32,955 nucleotides of DNA from a bacterium (GCA_021791015.1 JAJYFH010000001.1:1-32955); one strand, 5' to 3'. Numbered from the stretch's first letter, positions 6,044-19,831 are shown. Notes: generated by a model from the sequence alone, not told the origin. Numbers and translations: made by a program.

Positions 6044-6664
6044 CTAATTTAGCTTTTTGATAATCGTCTGATCTTTGGTATTTATCAGCTCAAAGTCATA
6101 ACTGCTTTCCCCGCTGAAAAATTTCTGGATGTGCCTTTCATAAAAATCAGTATTATCAATAACCATATAGCCTCCCTTAATGAGACGTGGAAACAGATTT
6201 TTATACTCAAAAGTCACGGTCTCCGGCAGATGGCTTCCATCCAGAAAAATAAAGCTAAATTTAGAAAAACTGTGTTCTTTGCCTTGAGACCAATAGTGAA
6301 CAGTGTCCATAATCTTAATGAAATCTTCTGAGGTCATGTGGTAATGGACGTGATTTTCATAGCCGGACAAAAGGTCCTTCATCTTTGTATAGAAATCACC
6401 GCCATATTTCCAGGGTTTACCGTCGTATGGCTTGTTGCCGCAAGGATCCACCGTTACCAACACTGTACCCGGATACATTTTTTCAATGATTTTTAAGAGT
6501 GCCAGAGCCGATCCGCCTCTGCGTGTGCCTATTTCTAAAAAAGGCGGCTGACCTTTTACTTTCGGTGTCTTGGCGGCATACTCAACAAGATTGTAAAAAT
6601 CCCGTTGATCGCCCTTGCTATCACTGTATGCAACAGATTCCTTAATGATTTTCGCTAACTCCAT
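6044..6664 (-). CDS. class I SAM-dependent methyltransferase
   Basis: SAM-binding motif I LEIGTRRGGSALAL, then VTVDP and FIFLDGSH. 206 aa. An extended -10 (TGGTATAAT) lies 6 nt upstream of the ATG. Confidence 0.65.
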   Translation of the reverse strand: MELAKIIKESVAYSDSKGDQRDFYNLVEYAAKTPKVKGQPPFLEIGTRRGGSALALLKIIEKMYPGTVLVTVDPCGNKPYDGKPWKYGGDFYTKMKDLLSGYENHVHYHMTSEDFIKIMDTVHYWSQGKEHSFSKFSFIFLDGSHLPETVTFEYKNLFPRLIKGGYMVIDNTDFYERHIQKFFSGESSYDFELINTKDQTIIKKLN

Positions 6665-10403: not shown

Positions 10404-10502
10404 GTCATTCTGGCTTGCCTGTCCGCCTTGGGAGGATCCAGAATCATTTTTGCTGGATGCCGGATCAACTGATTATATTTTTAAGGAATAGTCCGGAATG
10501 AC
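10404..10502. repeat. composite GTCATTC-hairpin element (~99 bp)
   Basis: GTCATTCTGGCTTGCCTGTCCGCCTTGGGAGGATCCAGAATC is followed by GGATGCCGGATCAACTGATTATATTTTTAAGGAATAGTCCGGAATGAC. The left unit matches 3143-3198 and the right unit matches 5361-5407. Confidence 0.75.
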
Positions 10503-10524
10503 AAAATTTTTATAATTTGCATAG

Positions 10525-10570: not shown

Positions 10571-11185
10571 TTATTGTCCGCTTTCGCTTCCCGACTGTTC
10601 GGGTTTCTCAGAATTTGTCGGCTGCTCGGGTTGCTCCTTCGGTTCCGATACCTCCGGTTGCTCATTCTGATCTTTCTTCTCACCGTTTATGGCTTCCATG
10701 GCATTCTCGTGGCCTTTGGCACTTTCATCTATTGCCTTTTGGATAGAAGCTTTTGCCTGTTCCGGTACCTGATTTAGAACTTTTTGCATTGTTGCCTCAT
10801 GCCGGGCCGTCGCATCCTGAATCTGCTCCAGTGCATTTGTTTTGCCGGTTGCTTTGGATTGTCCGGCATACTGCGTGGCCTCGTCCATATATTTCTCATA
10901 ATCTTTCTCAGCGACAGCTTCTGCCTTTTGTTCACCTTTTTCCGCCATTTTTTTGGCCTCTGCCAATTTCTCGTTTGCAATGCTTAAAGCCTTTTGTGCC
11001 TTACCATCTTTCGAAAATGTGAAAAACATGCTAATAGAGTCCATCCATTGTTCAAGAAAATAGAACGGGCTGTCCGGCGTAAGGCCGGGATTTGGCAATG
11101 AATTGCTGCTTGTCGCCGCCAGCGCTACACCGGAAGATAGCGATAGAACAATTACGGTCGTTAAGATTATTGATAGTTTTTTCAT
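10571..11185 (-). CDS. secreted DUF5667-like protein
   Basis: Signal peptide MKKLSIILTTVIVLSLSSGVALA, then PDSPFYFLEQWMDSISMFFTFSKDGKAQKALSIANEKLAEAKKM typical of DUF5667. The C-terminus is acidic and Glu/Pro/Gln-rich. GGAGG SD upstream. Confidence 0.65.
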   Translation of the reverse strand: MKKLSIILTTVIVLSLSSGVALAATSSNSLPNPGLTPDSPFYFLEQWMDSISMFFTFSKDGKAQKALSIANEKLAEAKKMAEKGEQKAEAVAEKDYEKYMDEATQYAGQSKATGKTNALEQIQDATARHEATMQKVLNQVPEQAKASIQKAIDESAKGHENAMEAINGEKKDQNEQPEVSEPKEQPEQPTNSEKPEQSGSESGQ

Positions 11186-11235: not shown

Positions 11236-11305
11236 ACAAAAAAGAGGTGAATTTTCAACAGTCTTATACAAGAGAAAAACCACCAGAAAATCGGTGACTT
11301 TTTCA

Positions 11306-11344
11306 TGGGGTCGGATAGTTTGCGATGTCAGAATTGAATTGATT
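11306..11344 (+). repeat. left 39-bp direct repeat (att-like) of the integrative element
   Basis: TGGGGTCGGATAGTTTGCGATGTCAGAATTGAATTGATT. The first 28 nt are identical to 18102-18129, and the full 39 nt differ at 2 positions. Confidence 0.85.
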
Positions 11345-11349
11345 AAATC

Positions 11350-12450
11350 TCAATTCCGATTAGCCAATGCCTTTTCAATCATTGCTTGACGATAATTATC
11401 TTCATAAACAAAACCCTCAAAATCTCTTCCGAAACCATCTTTCTTCTTTTCCCATTTAATATCATCATAAAATAATTTCTCTTTCAGAGCATTATTTGCC
11501 AATCGTTTAATTGTTAAAATGAAAAACAATAGACTTGCATCAAAATAATGTTGCTTATTGCGAAAAAGATATTCCTTAGGCTTGACCTTATCCCCGTGAA
11601 TTATATGATTCCTTAGAGTATAAAATCTGTCCGCCCAGTAGGCTTTGGGTGTTCCTTTTCTTCTTGTTTTACCAGTATAAGCCTCTGACCAAAAAGTTAT
11701 TTGCTTCTCATTAGTTGATGAACATAATTTTTCAATTGATTCTCTAAAATGTTTCCTTTTTTCTTTATTAGGTATTTTTAACAAGACCTCAAAAGCTGAT
11801 GTTTGCAAGGGTATTCTTACGCTTTGACTTAAAGATGGCGTATTATAATAACTTAGATAAAATATCTTTGTCGCTTCTACAATTCTCTTAAATAACATGG
11901 GTTTTTTATTCTTCAATTCCAATAACGCTTTTAATAAATGTCCATCAAATGAAACCCTATCTGGTTTAAGTAGATATGTTGGTGTTTCAAACTTCTTTTT
12001 GCCAATTTGATAACCACCAATTAACATATTTACAATAAAACCATCCTGAAGCCCGAAATAATCATTATCCATTCTGAAATTCTGAATGACTAAATCAAAA
12101 TTCTCAGAGGTATAGGCATAATGACCAGCATTTACATCTTGTCCGAGTTTTGCATTATTTGAAATATGTGAAACAAAAAAAAGATATTTTAATTCTTCTA
12201 CAGTCTCCATTTCTACTTGACTAAATTCACGAAAGTCACACTTGCCGATAGTTACTATTCCAACATCTTCAATTGCTTTCCCACCATGAATATTTGAGCA
12301 AACTAATGCTTGAACTTTTTTATACACCTCATCATCTTTAATATAATCTTTGCCTTTTAACTTGAAATTCCAAATCTTGATATCACCATCGTTAAAGAGA
12401 TACTCTTCTTTCTGTTGCATATTAAGATAAGGGAAATAAACTATCTGCAT
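11350..12450 (-). CDS. HEPN-domain protein (C-terminal RNxxxHG motif; Apea/Abi-like), N-terminal domain unknown
   Basis: 366 aa. The C-terminal helical region contains QTSAFEVLL ... WADRFYTLRNHIIHGDK. The R-N-H-I-I-H codons lie at 11596-11613, giving an Rx4H HEPN catalytic signature. The stop codon is 6 nt from the left direct repeat. Confidence 0.6.
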   Translation of the reverse strand: MQIVYFPYLNMQQKEEYLFNDGDIKIWNFKLKGKDYIKDDEVYKKVQALVCSNIHGGKAIEDVGIVTIGKCDFREFSQVEMETVEELKYLFFVSHISNNAKLGQDVNAGHYAYTSENFDLVIQNFRMDNDYFGLQDGFIVNMLIGGYQIGKKKFETPTYLLKPDRVSFDGHLLKALLELKNKKPMLFKRIVEATKIFYLSYYNTPSLSQSVRIPLQTSAFEVLLKIPNKEKRKHFRESIEKLCSSTNEKQITFWSEAYTGKTRRKGTPKAYWADRFYTLRNHIIHGDKVKPKEYLFRNKQHYFDASLLFFILTIKRLANNALKEKLFYDDIKWEKKKDGFGRDFEGFVYEDNYRQAMIEKALANRN

Positions 12451-12526
12451 AGATTCTTTTAAGATTTATTCTTAATGATTAAGCTTTTATTGCTTGGATT
12501 GATTGTCTCCTAGTTGAATAATGGGT

Positions 12527-13600
12527 TTATGTTCTGCCTGCTAAAAAGATAAAAATGAATAATATTACCGTAACTGTTGCGAAGTTGCAATCACTCTCCC
12601 TAATTTCTCCGTGAGCCACTTTGTTTCTCAAATCATATCCAAGGGGGTTAAAGAGAACATAATCCAGAAACCTGCAAAAATCTTCACTCCAAACCTTCAT
12701 CAACTCTTTTCTCTTTAATAAATGCGAATTAAGTGTTTTTAACTGGGTAGAAATGCCACCTTCTTGATTTAACCGAAGCACATCAATCCCTGCTTTTTCT
12801 GAGAATCTTAGGAAAACATTCTCAAATTGAGGTATCAAAATATGGATTGCAGAAATGTAATCTTCTTCGAAATATCTTTTGATTCCTATTTTTACTAAAG
12901 GTAAATTAGGAGCCTCTAGAATGTTTGATTGCTGAAGATATTTCATGAGAGATTTTTCGTTTAAGTTCTTCTTTTGGTCAGTTGTCCTCATAAGCTCTCT
13001 TAAAATATTCAATAAACGAAGCTTTAAATGAACTCCGATACTCAAACCATACATTTGCATTAACCATGTATATTCTCCGTCTTCTCCACCTCTTACAAGA
13101 TTCCCATCCTCATCTGTAGTATTTACAGTTACAAAGCGATATGAAATTGGCATCGTTTCCTGAGCTGATTTCTCAATCTCGGAAAACTTTGGGAAAAATC
13201 TTACTTTTGTAAGCTTGGTCAAGATTGCCTCTAAACTTGGTTCGGATAGGAAATGATTCACTTCCCTTTCCACTTCTTCCTTTGAAATTTCAGTTCTAAA
13301 TTCTGCTGTTTGATACTCATCTGATGATTTTTTGTTTAATTCTTTCACCTTGTGTTTTAATTCTTGTATTTTTTGAGAGTCCTGAAGCTCGCAAGCCTTT
13401 TCAAGCGCAGACTTATATAAGAAAGCAGCCCTCAGAAGTTCCTGTTTTTCCTCCGCCTCTTTTGCCATCTCTAAATCTAAAGATAATTCTTCTTGTTTTT
13501 CCTTCTTTTTCATCTGCTTATATTTTAACCTCTTTGTCTCTTCACATAAATACTTGTATGTTATACTTATTAAGTCTAGACCAGTAAAGATTGGAATCAT
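12527..13600 (-). CDS. DUF4209-like HEPN-domain protein (RNxxxHG) with N-terminal coiled-coil region
   Basis: 357 aa. The C-terminus IHILIPQFENVFLRFSEKAG ... NPLGYDLRNKVAHGEI matches the DUF4209 pattern. The R-N-K-V-A-H codons lie at 12611-12628. The start is uncertain, because no SD precedes ATG 13600. Confidence 0.6.
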   Translation of the reverse strand: MIPIFTGLDLISITYKYLCEETKRLKYKQMKKKEKQEELSLDLEMAKEAEEKQELLRAAFLYKSALEKACELQDSQKIQELKHKVKELNKKSSDEYQTAEFRTEISKEEVEREVNHFLSEPSLEAILTKLTKVRFFPKFSEIEKSAQETMPISYRFVTVNTTDEDGNLVRGGEDGEYTWLMQMYGLSIGVHLKLRLLNILRELMRTTDQKKNLNEKSLMKYLQQSNILEAPNLPLVKIGIKRYFEEDYISAIHILIPQFENVFLRFSEKAGIDVLRLNQEGGISTQLKTLNSHLLKRKELMKVWSEDFCRFLDYVLFNPLGYDLRNKVAHGEIRESDCNFATVTVILFIFIFLAGRT

Positions 13601-13690
13601 GTGAGTGATTGCGCCTATTTAGGGCAATCACTCGAAAAGCAGGGCGCAATCTCTGCTGGTCTAGACAACCTAGAGTGGTTGTCCTTTTTA
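13574..13690. promoter_or_regulatory. densely structured divergent control region (nested and alternative inverted repeats, three copies of a GCAATC-core motif, terminator-like hairpin)
   Basis: An 11-bp inverted repeat GTCTAGACCAG (13574-13584) pairs with CTGGTCTAGAC (13656-13666). A 10-bp inverted repeat GAGTGATTGC (13603-13612) pairs with GCAATCACTC (13624-13633). Competing with it is GATTGCGCC (13607-13615) paired with GGCGCAATC (13643-13651). The hairpin GACAACC-TAGAGT-GGTTGTC followed by CTTTTTATTT lies at 13664-13690. Confidence 0.5.
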
Positions 13691-13713
13691 TTTATTAATT
13701 TAGGAGAAAAATT

Positions 13714-14175
13714 ATGGATGAAAAAAGAAAACAAGAGATTGAAGACGAAGAAAAACTTAGACAAAAGATAAGAAAAAAGCAAAAGAGCAAAGAACAATTT
13801 GGCTGTCTCGCTGTGTTTATTGTTTTTATAATTATTGGTTTTATCGCAATCAGCATATGGGCAACTAGCAAAACTGCACCGACAGCAGAATTAAAGACCT
13901 TGGATGCAAGTGTCAGGATGGTGTCCGATGTTCCAGGTATAGAAATTACTAATAACGAAAATGTAAGTTGGAACGATTGCAAACTAAGTCTCAATAATGA
14001 CTATGACAGGACTTCCGTCCTTAAGCTTGAACCTCATAGCCCCCTGAATAATCCATATTCTCTTTTTACAAAGGACGACGGTACAAGATTTAACATTCTT
14101 CTCACTAAGCCAAAGAGCGTATTTATCAGTTGCCAAGTGAATGGCATTGAACGAACCAGTTACTATACATTTTAA
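13714..14175 (+). CDS. single-pass membrane protein, hypothetical
   Basis: AGGAGA SD 7 nt upstream. Lys/Glu-rich N-terminus, one TM helix (CLAVFIVFIIIGFIAISIWA) and a ~95-aa external domain. No family recognised. Confidence 0.65.
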   Translation: MDEKRKQEIEDEEKLRQKIRKKQKSKEQFGCLAVFIVFIIIGFIAISIWATSKTAPTAELKTLDASVRMVSDVPGIEITNNENVSWNDCKLSLNNDYDRTSVLKLEPHSPLNNPYSLFTKDDGTRFNILLTKPKSVFISCQVNGIERTSYYTF

Positions 14176-14230
14176 GCAACAGCATGATGTTGCTTACTCA
14201 TTCTAATCTTGCTATGGTAGAATACTTAAA

Positions 14231-14878
14231 ATGAGTATGAAAAAAGAGCCAAAAAGTCTATTAGAAAAATCAAGAAGAAAAGTCTCAGAAAACGCACAAC
14301 TATTAGCGTCTAATCCTGAATTTCAGGCAGACATTATCAAGCTAAGAAGAAAGTGGAATCTTCCAGATGGGGGGTTACAGTCAGGAGAAAGAGAAAAATG
14401 GTGGAAAGAAGTCCGAGACCCATCCATCAATGCAATACGCAAAGATATAATTACTCTTATCAAAAAAAATCAATTAAACCCGAAGATAATGAGTGGTCTC
14501 ATTGGTTATCTTTGGAGCAATAAAGAACAAGCGCTCATGATGACTATGCTCAGTCCGGTAGTCAAGAAGACTGTTAATGAAGATGGATTTGAAGAAATAT
14601 CGGTTGTAATTGACGAAAATACAAGCCACGCTGACTATGTCGATGCCTGGAAGAGAGTGCTGGAATTCCGAGATGATTTAGTTTATAAAAAAAGAAAAAA
14701 ACAACAACCTATAAAAAATCTTAAGAGAGACAGGAGAATATTTGAATTATGGGGAGAATCAAAAACCTCGAGACAAATTGCTGATACAATCTATGATGAG
14801 TTTGGAGAAGTAATAGGGTACGAGTATATTCCTATTCTTAAAAAAAGATTCCAAAACAGAACCGACACCAATCACTAG
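14231..14878 (+). CDS. hypothetical protein with possible C-terminal HTH
   Basis: 215 aa. The C-terminal RDRRIFELWGESKTSRQIADTIYDEFGE resembles a sigma-r4/LuxR-type HTH. An extended -10 (TGGTAGAAT, 14215-14223) sits 7 nt before the ATG with no SD. Confidence 0.6.
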   Translation: MSMKKEPKSLLEKSRRKVSENAQLLASNPEFQADIIKLRRKWNLPDGGLQSGEREKWWKEVRDPSINAIRKDIITLIKKNQLNPKIMSGLIGYLWSNKEQALMMTMLSPVVKKTVNEDGFEEISVVIDENTSHADYVDAWKRVLEFRDDLVYKKRKKQQPIKNLKRDRRIFELWGESKTSRQIADTIYDEFGEVIGYEYIPILKKRFQNRTDTNH

Positions 14879-14911
14879 CCATTGGTGTTTAGGAGAAAAA
14901 GAGATAATACA

Positions 14912-14934
14912 TTATCCTCGCTTTACGAGGATAA
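14912..14934 (+). terminator. 9-bp stem hairpin (terminator-like / SD-sequestering)
   Basis: TTATCCTCG-CTTTA-CGAGGATAA. The descending arm contains the GAGGA SD of the gene starting at 14940. Confidence 0.4.
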
Positions 14935-14939
14935 TTATT

Positions 14940-15188
14940 ATGAGTCAAGAATTAAACAATCAATTAACCAAGACCAGCGACCTGGGTTTAGCTAGTGTAA
15001 TAAACATTTATAGTCCGCTTGTAAAGTTATCGAGAGCAGATATCAGACGGGTTGAATTTGTATTTCATAAGACACCTGAGATTGAAACTTTAATTCGACA
15101 ATATTGGCAAAGAGCCCTCTCTATTGAACCTCAAGCTTATTTTCAATCAATGAAGACACTAAAGTCTAGAATATACGGAAATGAATAA
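14940..15188 (+). CDS. DUF5659-like small protein
   Basis: 82 aa. DLGLASVI...VEFVFHKTPEIETLIRQYWQRALSIEPQAYFQSMKTLKSRIYG matches my recollection of the DUF5659 pattern (YW...L.veP..f....k.LK..i). GAGGA SD upstream. Confidence 0.5.
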   Translation: MSQELNNQLTKTSDLGLASVINIYSPLVKLSRADIRRVEFVFHKTPEIETLIRQYWQRALSIEPQAYFQSMKTLKSRIYGNE

Positions 15189-15397
15189 TGGAATTAACAG
15201 AGGTACAGGTGAAAAAATTCCAAACTATTTATGAAAATCACTTTGGAATCAAAATAAGCAGTCAAGAAGCTTACAAAAGTGGTATGGCACTCTTAGTCCT
15301 AATGAAAAATATTTACAAACCCATTAGCAAAGGTGAGTTGGAGAAATTAAATGAAAATGAAGATTATAGAAACAGAAACATCACCGGAAACAGCTAA
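15188..15397 (+). CDS. hypothetical small protein
   Basis: 69 aa. The start overlaps the preceding stop (TAATG), which suggests translational coupling. Confidence 0.5.
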   Translation: MELTEVQVKKFQTIYENHFGIKISSQEAYKSGMALLVLMKNIYKPISKGELEKLNENEDYRNRNITGNS

Positions 15398-15800
15398 AAA
15401 CTATGTTCGTTTAAGAAGAGGTATTATAGACCATTTGACTGAAGAGAAACTCACTTGGGATGAATTCTCGTTACTCGAATACCTTATTATTAGAGCAAAT
15501 CCCAAAAATGGAAAACTTTTTACGAGCTACAACCTACTTTCTAATGAAACACATTGCCGTTATTCAATAAATCGAATTAACAAACTTCTTTTATCCTTAA
15601 AAGAAAAACTATACATTTATTACCCCGAACATAAGGGCAGTGGCAAACCTTTTGAGGTATCTATCGATAAATATCCACTCTCGAACAAACTGTATTTAAA
15701 AATTATCGAGGACAATGAGGCAGAGCTTTTTACAAGAAAGCAGAACTTTGTTAGGGCAAAAAAGTCTTTAGTGAAAGGACTTTCCATTGATAATAGATGA
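15351..15800 (+). CDS. hypothetical protein, possible winged-helix DNA-binding / replication-associated
   Basis: 149 aa. A GGAGA SD lies 6 nt upstream. It overlaps the previous ORF by 47 nt in another frame. The wHTH-like segment is FSLLEYLIIRANPKNGKLFTSYNLLSNETHCRYSINRINKLLLSLKEK. Confidence 0.5.
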   Translation: MKMKIIETETSPETAKNYVRLRRGIIDHLTEEKLTWDEFSLLEYLIIRANPKNGKLFTSYNLLSNETHCRYSINRINKLLLSLKEKLYIYYPEHKGSGKPFEVSIDKYPLSNKLYLKIIEDNEAELFTRKQNFVRAKKSLVKGLSIDNR

Positions 15801-15803
15801 AGC

Positions 15804-16379
15804 TTGGCAGAACCCCTAATAATAAGAATAAGAAATATAATGAAAAATAAAACAAGGCAGTTAATGGAAAAATATGATTTTACAGATTGGAAAAATTTAG
15901 AGAAAGAGTTCCTTTTAAATATCGACTATCCTTGTGTCAGAACTTGGTTAAGAGAGGTTAAGCAGTGGAAAGAGGAAAAAATAATATCCGGCAACACTCA
16001 AGGAAAGATACATAGTTGGAGATGGAAAAGGGCTGATTTTCAGCAGAGTTTATCAGAATCGTTATCGGAAAGTATGATAAAAGAGAACGATAAATTAATA
16101 CCTTCATTATACAAAGCAAAATGGCAAATTCTAGACACCATTATCGAAAGTTTGAAGATAAAGGAAAAGATTCTATATGAAGCGAGTGGCAAGGAAGTAA
16201 AAATAACTGAATTATCATTAAACGATATTAAAATTTATTATGAAATAATAAAATCTGAACTCGGTGAACCATTAAGATTAAGCGGAATTCAAAACATTCC
16301 TACATCGGAAGAAAAAATAACAGATATAGAAATAGAGGACATATTAAACAATATTGTGAAAAGAAAAAATAATGTATAA
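15804..16379 (+). CDS. hypothetical protein
   Basis: 191-aa ORF with a TTG start at 15804. An alternative ATG lies at 15840 (MKNKTRQL). No recognised domain. Confidence 0.5.
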   Translation: MAEPLIIRIRNIMKNKTRQLMEKYDFTDWKNLEKEFLLNIDYPCVRTWLREVKQWKEEKIISGNTQGKIHSWRWKRADFQQSLSESLSESMIKENDKLIPSLYKAKWQILDTIIESLKIKEKILYEASGKEVKITELSLNDIKIYYEIIKSELGEPLRLSGIQNIPTSEEKITDIEIEDILNNIVKRKNNV

Positions 16380-16384
16380 TAAAT

Positions 16385-16473
16385 TTGGACACAGCAAAAT
16401 ATGCGGAAAATTTTCATTTAGGGGCAACTCTGACAGTTTTCCGCAAGGATGCTGTGTCCAACAGAGTTGTCCC
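16385..16473 (+). promoter_or_regulatory. nested inverted repeats with pseudoknot-like third pairing upstream of the recombinase gene
   Basis: TTGGACACAGCA (16385-16396) pairs with TGCTGTGTCCAA (16450-16461). Inside that, GCGGAAAA (16403-16410) pairs with TTTTCCGC (16437-16444). The loop segment GGGGCAACTCTG (16421-16432) is complementary, with one mismatch, to CAGAGTTGTCCC (16462-16473). Confidence 0.5.
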
Positions 16474-16502
16474 TCTTTGATTAAGAAAAGGAAAAATGAA
16501 AA

Positions 16503-18152
16503 ATGAACGAAGAAATAAAATATTTCATCTATGCTAGAAAGTCTTCAGAAAGCGAAGATAGACAGGTTCAATCCATTGAAGCCCAACTTGATAGATTAAA
16601 ACAGTTGGCATTAGACTTAAACTTGAAGATAGTAAGGCAACCATTCACAGAAGCTAAATCAGCCAAGAATCCTAACGGAAGACCCATCTTTGAAGAAATG
16701 CTTGAAAGGATTGAGAAAGGCGAAGCGAATGGAATACTTACCTGGAAAATAAACAGACTATCAAGAAACCCAGTTGATAGTGGAAAAATCCAATGGATGC
16801 TTCAAGCGGGAACTATTAAGTCTATCCAAACAATAGAGAGAGTTTATAAGCCAGAGGACAACGCTCTTATTCTCTCTGTTGAATCTGGGACAGCTAACCA
16901 ATTTATATTAGATTTAAGCAGAGACACTAAAAGAGGGCTTAATAAGAAGTTGGAGAAGGGTTGGCTTCCTAATCTTGCTCCCCTTGGTTATTTAAATGAC
17001 AAAACAAAAGAACAGGGAGAAAAAGAAATCATTATAGACCCAGATACATTTGATTTAGTCAGGAAAATTTGGGATTTAATGCTGACAGGTACTTACAGTG
17101 TTTCCGAAGTGTTGAGGATTGCAAATGAAGACTGGGGCTTGAGAACAAGAAAATTCAAAAGGAGAGGCGGAAATAAGCTTTGTAAAAGTGGTCTTTATAG
17201 GATGTTAAACAACCCTTTCTATGCAGGACTTATCACAAGAAAAGATGGCAGAGAGTTTAATGGTAGCCATCCAAAAATGATTACGATGGATGAGTTTAAC
17301 AGAATTCAGGCACTTTTGGGTAATAAGTCAAAGGCAAAACCTCAAAATCATAACTTTCCTTTTACTGGATTTATCAGATGTGCTGAATGCGGCTGCTTAT
17401 TTACCGCAGAAGAAAAACCTCCTAAGTGGATTAGAAGCGAGAATAAATACAGGACTTACACTTATTATCACTGCACTCGTAGAAAAAAAGATGTGCCTTG
17501 CAACCAAGTCAAATTTGTAAGAGAAGAGGTCATTGAAGAACAGATTGATAAGCTATTGTCTGGATATACTATTCTCCCAGAGTTTCAGGAATGGGCTTTA
17601 GAGATATTAAGGAACTCAAACGATAAAGAGATAGTAGATAGAACTAAAATCAACGAATCTCTTCAAAAGGCAGTCAATAATAGTCAAAAGCAGTTAGACA
17701 ATCTCACTCAAATGCGATTAAGAGACTTAATTGATGATAAGGAGTATATAGACCAAAAGAAAGCATTAAAAGAGCGGTTAGGAGCAACCAGAACACGATT
17801 AAGAGAGGTTGAAGGGAGAGCAGACAACTGGCTGGAACTGACAGAGAAAGCTTTTGATTTCGCTACTTATGCGAGAGTGAGGTTCAATAAAGGCGATTGG
17901 AGAACAAAAAAAGAGATATTGATGACCTTAGGTCAGAACCCGACAATGAAAGACGGAAGACTGAGCTTTCAAGCTTGTAAATGGCTTGAACCTATAAAAC
18001 AGGGGTATCCAGCACTTGAAAAAGAATATCTAAGGTTAGAACTAAACAAAAAGCCCCTTAATAAGGCAAAAACAGAGGCATTAACCTCTGTCCTTACACA
18101 TTGGGGTCGGATAGTTTGCGATGTCAGAACTGAAATGATTTTACAGGTTTAA
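16503..18152 (+). CDS. large serine recombinase
   Basis: N-terminal resolvase catalytic domain (YARKSSESEDRQVQSIEAQ), a recombinase domain, a zinc ribbon (CAECGCLF...YYHCTRR) and a C-terminal coiled coil. 549 aa. The last ~17 codons are the right direct repeat. Confidence 0.9.
   Translation: MNEEIKYFIYARKSSESEDRQVQSIEAQLDRLKQLALDLNLKIVRQPFTEAKSAKNPNGRPIFEEMLERIEKGEANGILTWKINRLSRNPVDSGKIQWMLQAGTIKSIQTIERVYKPEDNALILSVESGTANQFILDLSRDTKRGLNKKLEKGWLPNLAPLGYLNDKTKEQGEKEIIIDPDTFDLVRKIWDLMLTGTYSVSEVLRIANEDWGLRTRKFKRRGGNKLCKSGLYRMLNNPFYAGLITRKDGREFNGSHPKMITMDEFNRIQALLGNKSKAKPQNHNFPFTGFIRCAECGCLFTAEEKPPKWIRSENKYRTYTYYHCTRRKKDVPCNQVKFVREEVIEEQIDKLLSGYTILPEFQEWALEILRNSNDKEIVDRTKINESLQKAVNNSQKQLDNLTQMRLRDLIDDKEYIDQKKALKERLGATRTRLREVEGRADNWLELTEKAFDFATYARVRFNKGDWRTKKEILMTLGQNPTMKDGRLSFQACKWLEPIKQGYPALEKEYLRLELNKKPLNKAKTEALTSVLTHWGRIVCDVRTEMILQV
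18102..18140 (+). repeat. right 39-bp direct repeat (inside the recombinase 3' end)
   Basis: TGGGGTCGGATAGTTTGCGATGTCAGAACTGAAATGATT encodes WGRIVCDVRTEMI of the recombinase C-terminus. Confidence 0.85.
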
Positions 18153-18754
18153 TAAAAGCCCCATTTATCCAAATCTTTTGAAAAACCAACTATCACCTCT
18201 ATCGTTTCAGATATAAATTCTGAGGCAAGTCCATAGGCGGTGAGTCTCAGATGACCCTCTAATACTATCAGGTCTTCATTGTCTCCTTTGCTTACTAAAA
18301 TAAGTTCTGGAAACTTAGCGCCTTTTTTTATTTTCTCGGCTACTTCTAAAAACCTATCATTGCTCTCACCGAATATTTCCTCTCCTGACTGAATAGTCTT
18401 GACTGCATCTTCTACCCGTCTTGAGCCCTTTGATATCTCAAGCCAATAACTATAACTAATATACTTTATGTTTTTTATGTCTTCTTTGGTTAGCTCTGCT
18501 CTTACCCATTTGACATCCTTTGGAAAACCATCAAATAAAAGCTTGTTATTATAACCTCGGGCATCGGCAAGAATTTGCTTTCTTAGTTTATTCTCTTCCT
18601 TATCTTTAAGGTCATAGTTATCAACTATATTCCTGTCAATCTTATATGACTTCAAAGCATTTATAATGGGTTTATCAAACCTCTCAGAATTTAATTCTCC
18701 TTTAAGGAAAATAGCTATCATTTCATTTTCAGTTATATTTTTGATTATCTTCAT
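18149..18754 (-). CDS. hypothetical protein (ORFan, low GC)
   Basis: ORF 18149-18832 overlaps tRNA-His, so ATG 18754 (MKIIKNITENEM) is the likely start. An extended -10 TGCTATAAT sits 6 nt upstream of it with no SD. Contains a C-terminal LIVLEGHLRLTAYG motif. Its stop overlaps the convergent recombinase stop by 4 nt. Confidence 0.6.
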   Translation of the reverse strand: MKIIKNITENEMIAIFLKGELNSERFDKPIINALKSYKIDRNIVDNYDLKDKEENKLRKQILADARGYNNKLLFDGFPKDVKWVRAELTKEDIKNIKYISYSYWLEISKGSRRVEDAVKTIQSGEEIFGESNDRFLEVAEKIKKGAKFPELILVSKGDNEDLIVLEGHLRLTAYGLASEFISETIEVIVGFSKDLDKWGFY

Positions 18755-18776
18755 AAAAAAATTATAGCACATAAAA

Positions 18777-18802
18777 AGAGCCTCAAATGAGGTCTCTTTT
18801 AT
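18777..18802 (-). terminator. rho-independent terminator downstream of tRNA-His
   Basis: The minus strand reads AAAAGAGACCTCA-TT-TGAGGCTCT followed by TTTTT, with one bulged base in the stem. Confidence 0.55.
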
Positions 18803-18820: not shown

Positions 18821-18896
18821 TGGGGCGATCATCGGGAATTGAACCCGAATCTAGAGGACCACAACCTCTCGTGTTAACCGTTACACTATGACCGCC
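18821..18896 (-). tRNA. tRNA-His (anticodon GTG), CCA encoded
   Basis: Manual fold: G-1 paired to C73, acceptor GCGGTCA/TGATCGC, D stem GTGT/ACAC, anticodon stem AGAGG/CCTCT with loop TTGTGGT, T arm TCGGG-TTCAATT-CCCGA, 3' CCA. Confidence 0.9.
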
Positions 18897-18903
18897 ATAA
18901 AAA

Positions 18904-19380
18904 TTAATTCAATTGTAGCTCATGCTGATGTACTAAATAATGACAGTTACAACACAACCAAGTCAGATTTTCTATTTCATTATTACTTCTCTTTTTATCT
19001 TTATGATGTACTATTAATACCCTCTTATCATCTATGCCACATATTTGACACTTTCTGTTCTGATTTGATCTTTTTAATCTACTTCTATATGTAGCTTGTC
19101 CATTATTCCAATTACCATGATTCTCCGATAATCTTACATTTCTGTTCATCCAAATACAGGTACAGCTTTTTGAGCAAAAAAATTTACCCAATTTTGATTT
19201 TCTGATTTGTGCTGGTGTTCGTAAAATTACTTTGCCACAATTATTACACTCTTTGCGTATTCTCTTTACTTGTCCCTTTGAACGGCATTCAATAGAACAA
19301 TGTCTACTCCAACCGATTTTTAAATGTCTCGGTTTTGCATAAAATTCCTTCTCACAAACTATGCATTTTACATATGGCAT
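18904..19380 (-). CDS. HNH endonuclease (free-standing, Cys-rich zinc-finger N-terminal region)
   Basis: C-terminal HHKDKKRSNNEIENLTWLCCNCHYLVH is an HNH motif. Several CxxC pairs lie upstream. ~30% G+C in a sampled line. The gene is wedged between tRNA-Arg and tRNA-His, 7 nt from the tRNA-His 5' end. Confidence 0.8.
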   Translation of the reverse strand: MPYVKCIVCEKEFYAKPRHLKIGWSRHCSIECRSKGQVKRIRKECNNCGKVILRTPAQIRKSKLGKFFCSKSCTCIWMNRNVRLSENHGNWNNGQATYRSRLKRSNQNRKCQICGIDDKRVLIVHHKDKKRSNNEIENLTWLCCNCHYLVHQHELQLN

Positions 19381-19654: not shown

Positions 19655-19710
19655 GAACCTGTATATTATAGCTGAATTCTGACTTATTTTCAATAAATTC
19701 CCTCTGGTTT

Positions 19711-19831
19711 GTCATTCCAGACTACTCTGCTAAAAATATAATCAGTTGATCCGGAATCCATTTATTCAATAGATTCTGAATCAAGTTCAGAATGACAAAC
19801 GAGATAATGATTCTGGTCAAGCCAGAATGAC
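19711..19831. repeat. composite GTCATTC-hairpin element plus one extra unit
   Basis: 19711-19796 is the inverted counterpart of 5317-5407 (GTCATTCCAGACTACTCTGCTAAAAATATAATCAGTTGATCCGGAATCC ... AGATTCTGAATCAAGTTCAGAATGAC). It is followed by GATTCTGGTCAAGCCAGAATGAC (19809-19831), which resembles 3222-3244. Confidence 0.75.

Follow-up and report, generated by a model that had tools for sequence, protein, structure and literature searches.

A pair of 39-nucleotide (nt) direct repeats brackets 6.8 kb of DNA, including the gene of a large serine recombinase (LSR), in a bacterial contig of 32,955 nt (GCA_021791015.1 JAJYFH010000001.1:1-32955; here the window, to the whole of which all coordinates refer, and which is one entire contig of a 0.64-Mb, 64%-complete assembly). 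These repeats are very probably the junctions of an integrated element, E1, whose LSR recombines at a site lying inside the last codons of its own gene; the host's copy of the repeat would be one of a kind that marks the boundaries of gene cassettes. E1 (11306-18140) is a 6.8-kb, low-GC, non-phage integrative element with defence-like cargo and the LSR; the repeat is called R, and its left and right copies R1 and R2. The reading is carried by things that can be seen directly: the repeat itself, empty sites in relatives, the layout of gene and site throughout the recombinase family, and arrays of R. It would also account for long identical flanks, which are unexpected for a serine integrase: the attachment (att) site would be the end of the recombinase gene, and the host site a left-over copy of it.

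R reads TGGGGTCGGATAGTTTGCGATGTCAGAA[T/C]TGAA[T/A]TGATT and stands at 11306-11344 and 18102-18140, both on the plus strand and 6796 nt apart from start to start: the first 28 nt are identical and 9 of the remaining 11 match, so that the coordinates, the orientation and the match pattern given in a sequence-only reading of this DNA were all reproduced. Allowing up to 3 mismatches, the 28-mer occurs just twice in the window, and 100 dinucleotide-preserving shuffles of the window did not yield even one match. No inverted copy was found in the window at the same tolerance, nor among the window's inverted repeats; E1 shows no spare inverted att copy. The likeness between the two places ends sharply at the edges of the 39-mer. 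R2 is in frame with the 549-amino acid (aa) LSR gene (16503-18152, plus strand), of which it encodes WGRIVCDVRTEMI, followed by LQV and the stop codon; over this copy the C-terminus of the protein reads ...THWGRIVCDVRTEMILQV. R1 is non-coding. It lies 3 nt from termA, a minus-strand terminator hairpin with a T-run (11275-11302) that forms the left arm of the left junction (termA/R1), and on its other side is the 3' end of a minus-strand open reading frame (ORF); about 70 nt away is the promoter serving the host's DUF5667 gene (11235-11208, minus strand), which matches the sigma-70 consensus at 12 of 12 positions (TTGACA-16-TATAAT with an extended TG) and lies in a region that is kept in genomes with the empty site. 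The placing of one copy inside the recombinase's 3' coding end, and of the other in non-coding DNA beside the DUF5667 promoter, had both been proposed beforehand; in-frame translation and a promoter scan agree with them.

The last 11 nt of the two copies are distributed in a particular way: R2 ends in the host version (AACTGAAAT.AT), which is that of the empty sites, and R1 in the element's own (AATTGAATTGATT). This is what a conservative exchange inside the 28 nt of identity predicts. Read in the recombinase frame, R1 gives WGRIVCDVRIELIKSQFRLANAFSIIA and a stop, which would be the tail of the enzyme in circularised E1. Among the explanations that the sequence-only reading had offered for the flanking repeats, an att core inside the integrase's 3' end is upheld by this mismatch pattern, together with the Trp codon at which the conserved part of the whole family ends (see below). 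R is without dyad symmetry, as had been remarked before. A dyad extending beyond R was considered, in which GTCAGAA would find a partner, CTCTGTC, in recombinase codons about 10-16 nt left of the Trp codon, with its centre near nt 6-8; the left arms beside tRNA-His fit it poorly. That the 39-mer might be a tRNA or belong to another known RNA class was also considered and rejected: ARAGORN and Rfam, which were used for tRNAs and for RNA families, respectively, were negative in the window and at the empty-site loci, and folding by hand gives no T-arm. An exact 23-mer of R had no match in public metagenome contigs or genome contigs. The earlier count of two copies holds for the window, not for the genome: a third, diverged copy lies on another contig (C70:7362-7400, locus L105). 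It is found 2 nt past the end of a uvrA-like ORF, overlaps the stop codon of a minus-strand 162-aa asparaginase-like ORF and adjoins a second, shorter LSR (423 aa), with a tRNA-Gln 0.9 kb off.

What places the att site is the recombinase family. The E1 LSR matches the Resolvase (PF00239, 1e-17), Recombinase (PF07508, 2.4e-7) and Zn-ribbon (PF13408, 2.3e-10) domains above their curated cut-offs, as well as the PHROG integrase phrog_95 (4.7e-70); the catalytic Y-x-R-x-S motif is in YARKSSESEDRQ at residues 10-21, with Y10, R12, S14, S15 and R20 invariant in a 20-member alignment. Homologues fill more than 4900 protein clusters at E <= 1e-30, and species-representative genomes hold at least 585 copies. 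The named homologues are Patescibacteria; no description of this Patescibacteria LSR family was found in the searchable literature, and 2.9 million viral contigs contain almost no members of the family (3 moderately related copies, no close relative). The best 120 of the more than 4900 homologues are 56-77% identical to the E1 protein over 96-99% of its length (97% for most), that is, to Trp 534: this residue is invariant in the 20-member alignment, and a Trp is aligned there in 119 of the 120. Beyond it the tails of these 120 diverge: 68 are antisense-tRNA-like (W...DSNP, from the T-loop), 33 stop within 5 codons, and 14 have the free form W-x7-[RG]-T, like E1's. A survey of 80 species-representative genome loci placed the recombinase's 3' end in 78. 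An antisense tRNA called by ARAGORN begins no more than 6 nt from the Trp codon in 61 of these (tRNA-Asn 14, Gln 12, Trp 11, His 9, Ser 8, and others), and a further 12 have the T-loop GAAC at nt 21, with the tRNA uncalled. The free-form tail, here the mark of a recombinase/R state, is found in one of the 78 (L241), where neither a second copy nor a tRNA lies within 10 kb.

Since TGG is the antisense of the CCA end of a tRNA, and since the tails vary past it, the att site of this family would span the last recombinase codons; with the site inside the 3' end of the gene, the tail of the enzyme would be supplied by whichever right arm is joined to it. When other copies are aligned, as the sequence-only reading had suggested, the conserved part stops at one Trp codon and the frame continues into the partner site. 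Of the four closest homologues, three (77, 74 and 68% identity) continue into a tRNA-His or tRNA-His-like 3' end and close with WGG and a stop codon. The related element L028, 5.9 kb long, is flanked by an 18-nt repeat of the tRNA-His end and sits in the same His-Arg-Gly cluster as the tRNAs of the window; other relatives have 18-19-nt repeats of a tRNA end, one of them in three copies. In L020 (genome G058) three co-oriented tRNA-His 3' 18-mers (at 6502, 7842 and 17550) make up a tandem array: the first pair encloses a 1.3-kb unit, and a 9.7-kb recombinase element precedes the tRNA. At the 3' end of the E1 recombinase no antisense tRNA is found (no tRNA or Rfam match at 18102-18200). The tRNA-His(GTG) of the window (18821-18895, minus strand) is intact and unoccupied, although its 3' end is the site used by the LSR's closest relatives; it lies 680 nt away and has a terminator of its own, termB (18774-18800, minus strand), directly downstream as the left arm of the unoccupied site.

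The last conserved codons of the family, KAKTEALxSV (KAKTEALTSV in E1), can also be read on the other strand: in antisense they form a strong hairpin followed by a U-run (18066-18097, minus strand; z = -4.0), which is the left arm of the right junction. Its counterpart in L028 (11560-11600; z = -2.5) sits 11 nt past the end of the invaded tRNA-His, so that an element of this family would bring along a terminator for the tRNA that it enters. In the window the hairpin is likely to terminate transcripts entering from the right. NKAKTEALxSV, the most conserved C-terminal motif of the family, coincides with this antisense terminator-like hairpin, and its conservation may be as much at the level of DNA or RNA as at that of protein.

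An empty site, carrying R without the 6.8 kb at the homologous place, had been named as the thing to look for, and is what relatives have. G001, G002 and G003, of the same family, lack the 6.8 kb and share one order of genes: DUF763, the CCA-adding enzyme, tRNA-Gly, tRNA-Arg, tRNA-His, then 0.7-0.9 kb, DUF5667 and an ABC transporter. A single R (GGGTCGGATAGTTAGTGATGTCAGAACTGAATTTAT in G002, missing its first 12 nt in G003) lies beside termA in two of them; the gap in G001 has a different spacing and two copies, one close to tRNA-His, and the sequence there is TGGAGTCGGATAGTTTGCGATGTCAG-AGT-AAATTAT. The sequence is conserved across DUF5667 and termA as far as R's final base, and not past it. 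The genes between R and tRNA-His differ: a creatininase in G003, a pyrophosphatase-like ORF in G001, none in G002, and in the window a 202-aa ORF (18149-18757, minus strand; the longest frame has 227 aa, and homologues start at Met26) without an assigned function. That this last might be a syntenic host gene was considered and dropped: its homologues in G001, G002 and G026 lie elsewhere, in unrelated surroundings, and no R follows them. With the slash set between left and right arms, the window can thus be written as termA/R1, E1 (cargo to recombinase)/R2, 202-aa gene, termB/tRNA-His.

R is not confined to this locus, but it is restricted to one lineage. Searching the genomes of the class gave 15 copies, spread over 8 genomes (the reversed pattern that served as control gave none), and 400 genomes across the phylum gave chance-level matches only. 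The copies are co-oriented, and all but two are downstream of tRNA-His, four in G004 and two each in G001 and G008, and between them lie single accessory genes (GDPD, GNAT, HIT, ceramidase-like, pyrophosphatase); at 11 of the 15, a minus-strand ORF has its stop codon between -11 and +8 nt relative to the right end of R. A terminator hairpin, a loose TTAYNCNT motif and TGGGG precede every tRNA-His, and likewise each R with an intact TGGGG core. The left arms come in kinds: every termA-type arm adjoins an R (window, G002, G003 and G004, all with the same hairpin); termB-type arms are found beside tRNA-His (window, G003, G004 and G008), and also at the attL of L028 and two R copies of G004. Tandem units next to a fixed target, some of them without recombinase, as accretion would build them, are seen behind tRNA-His in G001, G004 and G008, genomes with R arrays and no LSR homologue. 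The sequence-only reading would have given up its element if the repeats proved to be a dispersed family unrelated to element boundaries; a repeat family they do form, and it is one that marks the boundaries of elements and cassettes. Three copies (two in G004 and one in G008; L090, reverse complement, 13560-13637 and 10820-10913, and L106, 4250-4349) are split by an insert of 20-60 nt between TGGGGTCGGAT and ATAGTTAGCG, and one of these inserts is a GC-rich hairpin.

What kind of half-site is R? It starts like the end of tRNA-His (TGGGGT...), but its GAAC is at nt 26-29, as against nt 21-24 for the T-loop GAAC in 60 of the 61 tRNA-joined copies; in all 14 free-form tails the [RG]-T at W+8 and W+9 represents the same GAAC at nt 26. 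Compared with attB, the attP of serine integrases has its zinc-ribbon-domain motif 5 bp farther from the crossover (PMC3783163). With its GAAC 5 nt farther out, R may be read as an element-type (P') arm and the tRNA as a host-type (B') arm. Free-form tails recur in comparable surroundings. In the metagenome contig L033, one NT5C gene separates such a recombinase from a second tail piece, which stands behind a terminator; the repeat (1987-2029 and 2945-2987) is perfect over 43 nt and imperfect over about 85 nt, and defence-like cargo (SLFN/AlbA_2, Hypoth_Ymh, ResIII) lies downstream. In L032 the free-form-tail recombinase is followed by a second element ending in tRNA-Gln. These observations bear on another of the earlier suggestions, that the left copy is what remains of an earlier integrase after serial integration: the host copy does look like an orphaned tail piece, and relatives do have arrays, but no integrase sequence lies upstream. 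A decayed recombinase gene there was looked for and rejected (past 13 identical residues the tblastn match continues only weakly, and in DNA the likeness goes no further than the repeat), and the search for a remnant of an older element beside tRNA-His found none, the flank there consisting of a terminator and a TATAAT box.

The sequence of events that we favour would then be as follows. The left arm of the element's site would be the last conserved recombinase codons (KAKTEALTSVLTH), which in antisense would form the terminator hairpin; the core would lie at or just past the invariant TGG codon, and the right arm would be the tail-coding R. Members of the family would normally recombine this recombinase-end site with a tRNA 3' end (that of tRNA-His in the closest relatives); E1 would instead have been joined to a resident R, 0.7 kb from an intact tRNA-His, by an exchange within the first 28 nt of R, probably near nt 6-8, and probably catalysed by the LSR. 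The resident R would be an orphaned recombinase-tail (P'-type) half-site, one of those that separate single-gene cassettes stacked behind tRNA-His. The tRNA-His allele of the window has only TGGGG in common with R or with the relatives' 18-mer, a possible reason for its being unoccupied. Within one family of bacteria, and even within one genus, the tRNA-His(GTG) gene comes in two unrelated alleles (window 18821-18895; L087, L088, L089, L090, L106): GGCGATCATCGGGAATTGAACCC... in the window, G001 and G003, and GGTGGCTGATGGGA[CT]TCGAACCC... in G002, G004, G008 and L028.

The history of the locus is on shakier ground than its parts. That E1 entered a pre-existing termA/R junction has, in our estimate, not quite an even chance: such junctions are found in three genera without E1 and are in that case older than it, and direct entry is the most parsimonious course. 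There is also an appreciable chance, to be entertained tentatively, that E1 came first to a termA/tRNA-His site and that a cassette consisting of R2, the 202-aa gene and termB was inserted later, or else that a two-unit circle was integrated at tRNA-His by way of its second site. In either case the limits of the island would be 11306 and 18820, which would make the right 39-mer an internal junction of attP type. Such a history requires only pairing of the P'-type (R-type) with the tRNA-type arm, and tandem arrays exist in L032 and L020; the low-GC tract does continue past 18140 (GC, about 0.44 before 11.3 kb, is 0.30-0.37 after that point and low as far as about 19.5 kb), and the three termB-type arms in one array of G004 imply that incoming units must carry such an arm. 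Set against it are the termA/R junctions of three genera without E1, which are more simply taken as older than E1, and the tRNA-His allele of the window, with no more than TGGGG in common with R or the relatives' 18-mer.

The favoured reading has difficulties that have to be weighed. For a canonical serine integrase, attL-type and attP-type sites are no partners for attP (PMC3783163), so that entry of E1 into a resident R would need relaxed pairing or RecA. The 5-nt shift does not extend to every relative: L028, L014 and L020 each have a far-end right arm that matches the tRNA over 18-19 nt and lacks GAAC at nt 26-29. Among left arms little is conserved beyond the loose TTAYNCNT beside the core. 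E1's R is the same as the resident R over 28 nt, yet sister genomes have R copies with differences at 1-4 of these positions. Finally, what ties the arrays of G001, G004 and G008 to the enzyme is shared sequence alone.

RecA would relieve the first of these difficulties: a circular E1 crossed with a resident R by homologous recombination, which the sequence-only reading had also suggested, over the 28-39 nt of identity, with the LSR uninvolved, makes no call on a forbidden pairing of attP with an attL-type site. The two sites are 37/39 identical, and the exchange did fall in the perfect 28-nt stretch. We nevertheless consider this unlikely. RecA-dependent exchange has its lower limit near such a length of identity (28 nt); the arrangement recurs elsewhere with the same or longer identity, and at tRNA ends with just 18-19 nt; and the junctions are exactly at the crossover codon of the family. 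That last coincidence speaks equally against R as a regulatory or RNA element of the host (a motif in a 3'-untranslated region, or a small RNA before a terminator) that the recombinase merely overlaps in one copy: R is in frame in the LSR, and at precisely that codon. Most R copies do lie between the stop codon of a gene and a terminator, but R matches no tRNA or Rfam family and stands at the edge of presence/absence variation in every genome, which makes this explanation very improbable. A target-site duplication by a transposition-like event, with the 39-mer as copied host sequence, fits the one copy of empty sites and the two that flank the insert but hardly deserves credence: the last 11 nt of the left copy differ from the host version, E1 has no transposase, serine recombinases generate no target duplications, and 14 unrelated family members share the conserved tail motif of the right copy ([RG]-T at W+8 and W+9), from which it follows that the element carries R natively.

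Returning to E1 as an element that would recombine at the end of its own recombinase gene, one may ask how far the logic of its sites could be carried. It is conceivable, although we regard it as doubtful, that the R sites, tRNA-His and the LSR together constitute a serine-recombinase counterpart of the integron. Each junction would consist of a terminator-type left arm, a TGGGG core and a right arm of R type or tRNA type. If the right arm alone sets the type of the site, then exchange between an R-type and a tRNA-type site would regenerate one of each; units made of R, a gene and a terminator, and E1-like units as well, could be stacked, excised and re-inserted behind tRNA-His indefinitely, without a separate directionality factor, and the C-terminal tail of the enzyme would be rewritten at each step. 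The likeness of R arrays to integrons and to CALINs (clusters of attC sites lacking integron-integrases) is one of analogy only: one-way rows of unrelated single genes, each with the same short site, in some genomes without a recombinase. Integrons differ in having a tyrosine recombinase, IntI, an attC that folds as an imperfect palindrome, and promoterless cassettes; the sole recombinase of E1 is of the serine type, R lacks dyad symmetry, and the units of R arrays carry terminators, the 202-aa gene having a TATAAT box besides.

The closest published analogue, by comparison of described features, appears to be the ssrA islands of Dehalococcoides with their serine recombinase DsiB. There, too, the LSR gene always overlaps the att site at its 3' end and has a variable C-terminus, and islands are stacked in tandem downstream of the target, some units being integrase-free (PMC3146451). 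As described, these islands are also like E1 in having a tRNA-like 3' end as the target and short flanking direct repeats, and in being of the integrative mobilizable element (IME) type; they are unlike it in that the target is the tmRNA gene, the repeat is 20 bp of the target itself, the islands measure 10-30 kb and a second, small recombinase, DsiA, is present (PMC3146451). E1, for its part, belongs with tRNA targets and single-gene units, and in it the repeated site is the element-type, tail-coding arm, at which insertion has taken place. The LSRs of phages (A118/LI, phiC31, Bxb1) have the same set of domains, and the right-arm shift of 5 nt (GAAC at nt 26 as against nt 21) resembles that between attP and attB, but their attP lies outside the gene, shares few bases with attB and recombines strictly with attB, whereas the junctions of non-phage E1 share 37/39 nt (PMC3783163). 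SCCmec and pseudo-SCC (staphylococcal cassette chromosome) islands resemble E1, by description, as islands of a serine recombinase (Ccr) at one site, with flanking direct repeats and tandem composites that include units without recombinase. Their target is the 3' end of a protein gene, rlmH, and the ccr genes are inside the island, not crossing att; in these respects, and in the lack of a tail swap, they differ from E1. Integration alters the encoded C-terminus in the systems of Mx8 (intP/intX) and of mycobacteriophages with attP within the gene, and these share with E1 an attP in coding sequence; they work by tyrosine chemistry and have no cassette arrays.

The interest of these sites lies mainly in the possible integron-like use of a serine recombinase. 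They point to a way in which the ultra-small, gene-poor Patescibacteria, with genomes of about 1 Mb, gain and swap accessory and defence genes. If it is true that the enzyme accepts R with R, or R with tRNA, and regenerates its own types of site, it breaks the strict attP-with-attB rule that underlies the tools made from serine integrases; the natural set of left and right arms provides ready substrates for testing such pairing rules.

The rest of E1 can be described briefly. Its cargo, on the minus strand (11350-13600), consists of two defence-like ORFs, one of 366 aa and one of 357 aa, the latter with a DUF4209 match and a match to the PADLOC candidate defence family PDC-S39. A plus-strand module follows (13714-16379), with ORFs of 153, 215, 82 (DUF5659), 69, 149 (weakly DnaD-like) and 191 aa by profile matches; it is partly common to relatives borne at tRNA-His, since the 215-, 82- and 149-aa ORFs have tblastn matches in L030, and the 69-aa ORF in L028 and others. 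The scan of E1's ORFs brought up no phage structural gene, no transposase and no second ORF with a resolvase domain. On its right the recombinase is followed by a series of minus-strand features: the 202-aa ORF, tRNA-His, an HNH endonuclease gene, tRNA-Arg, tRNA-Gly and the gene of the CCA-adding enzyme. The HNH endonuclease gene (18904-19380) is free-standing between tRNA-His and tRNA-Arg; it is absent from G002 and G003, and is found at the same place in G001 (87% identity). The whole region from DUF5667 to tRNA-Gly is bracketed by a 52-nt inverted repeat pair (10454-10505 and 19708-19760; 30 nt at 97% and 20 nt at 90%) that contains GAATGAC/GTCATTC.

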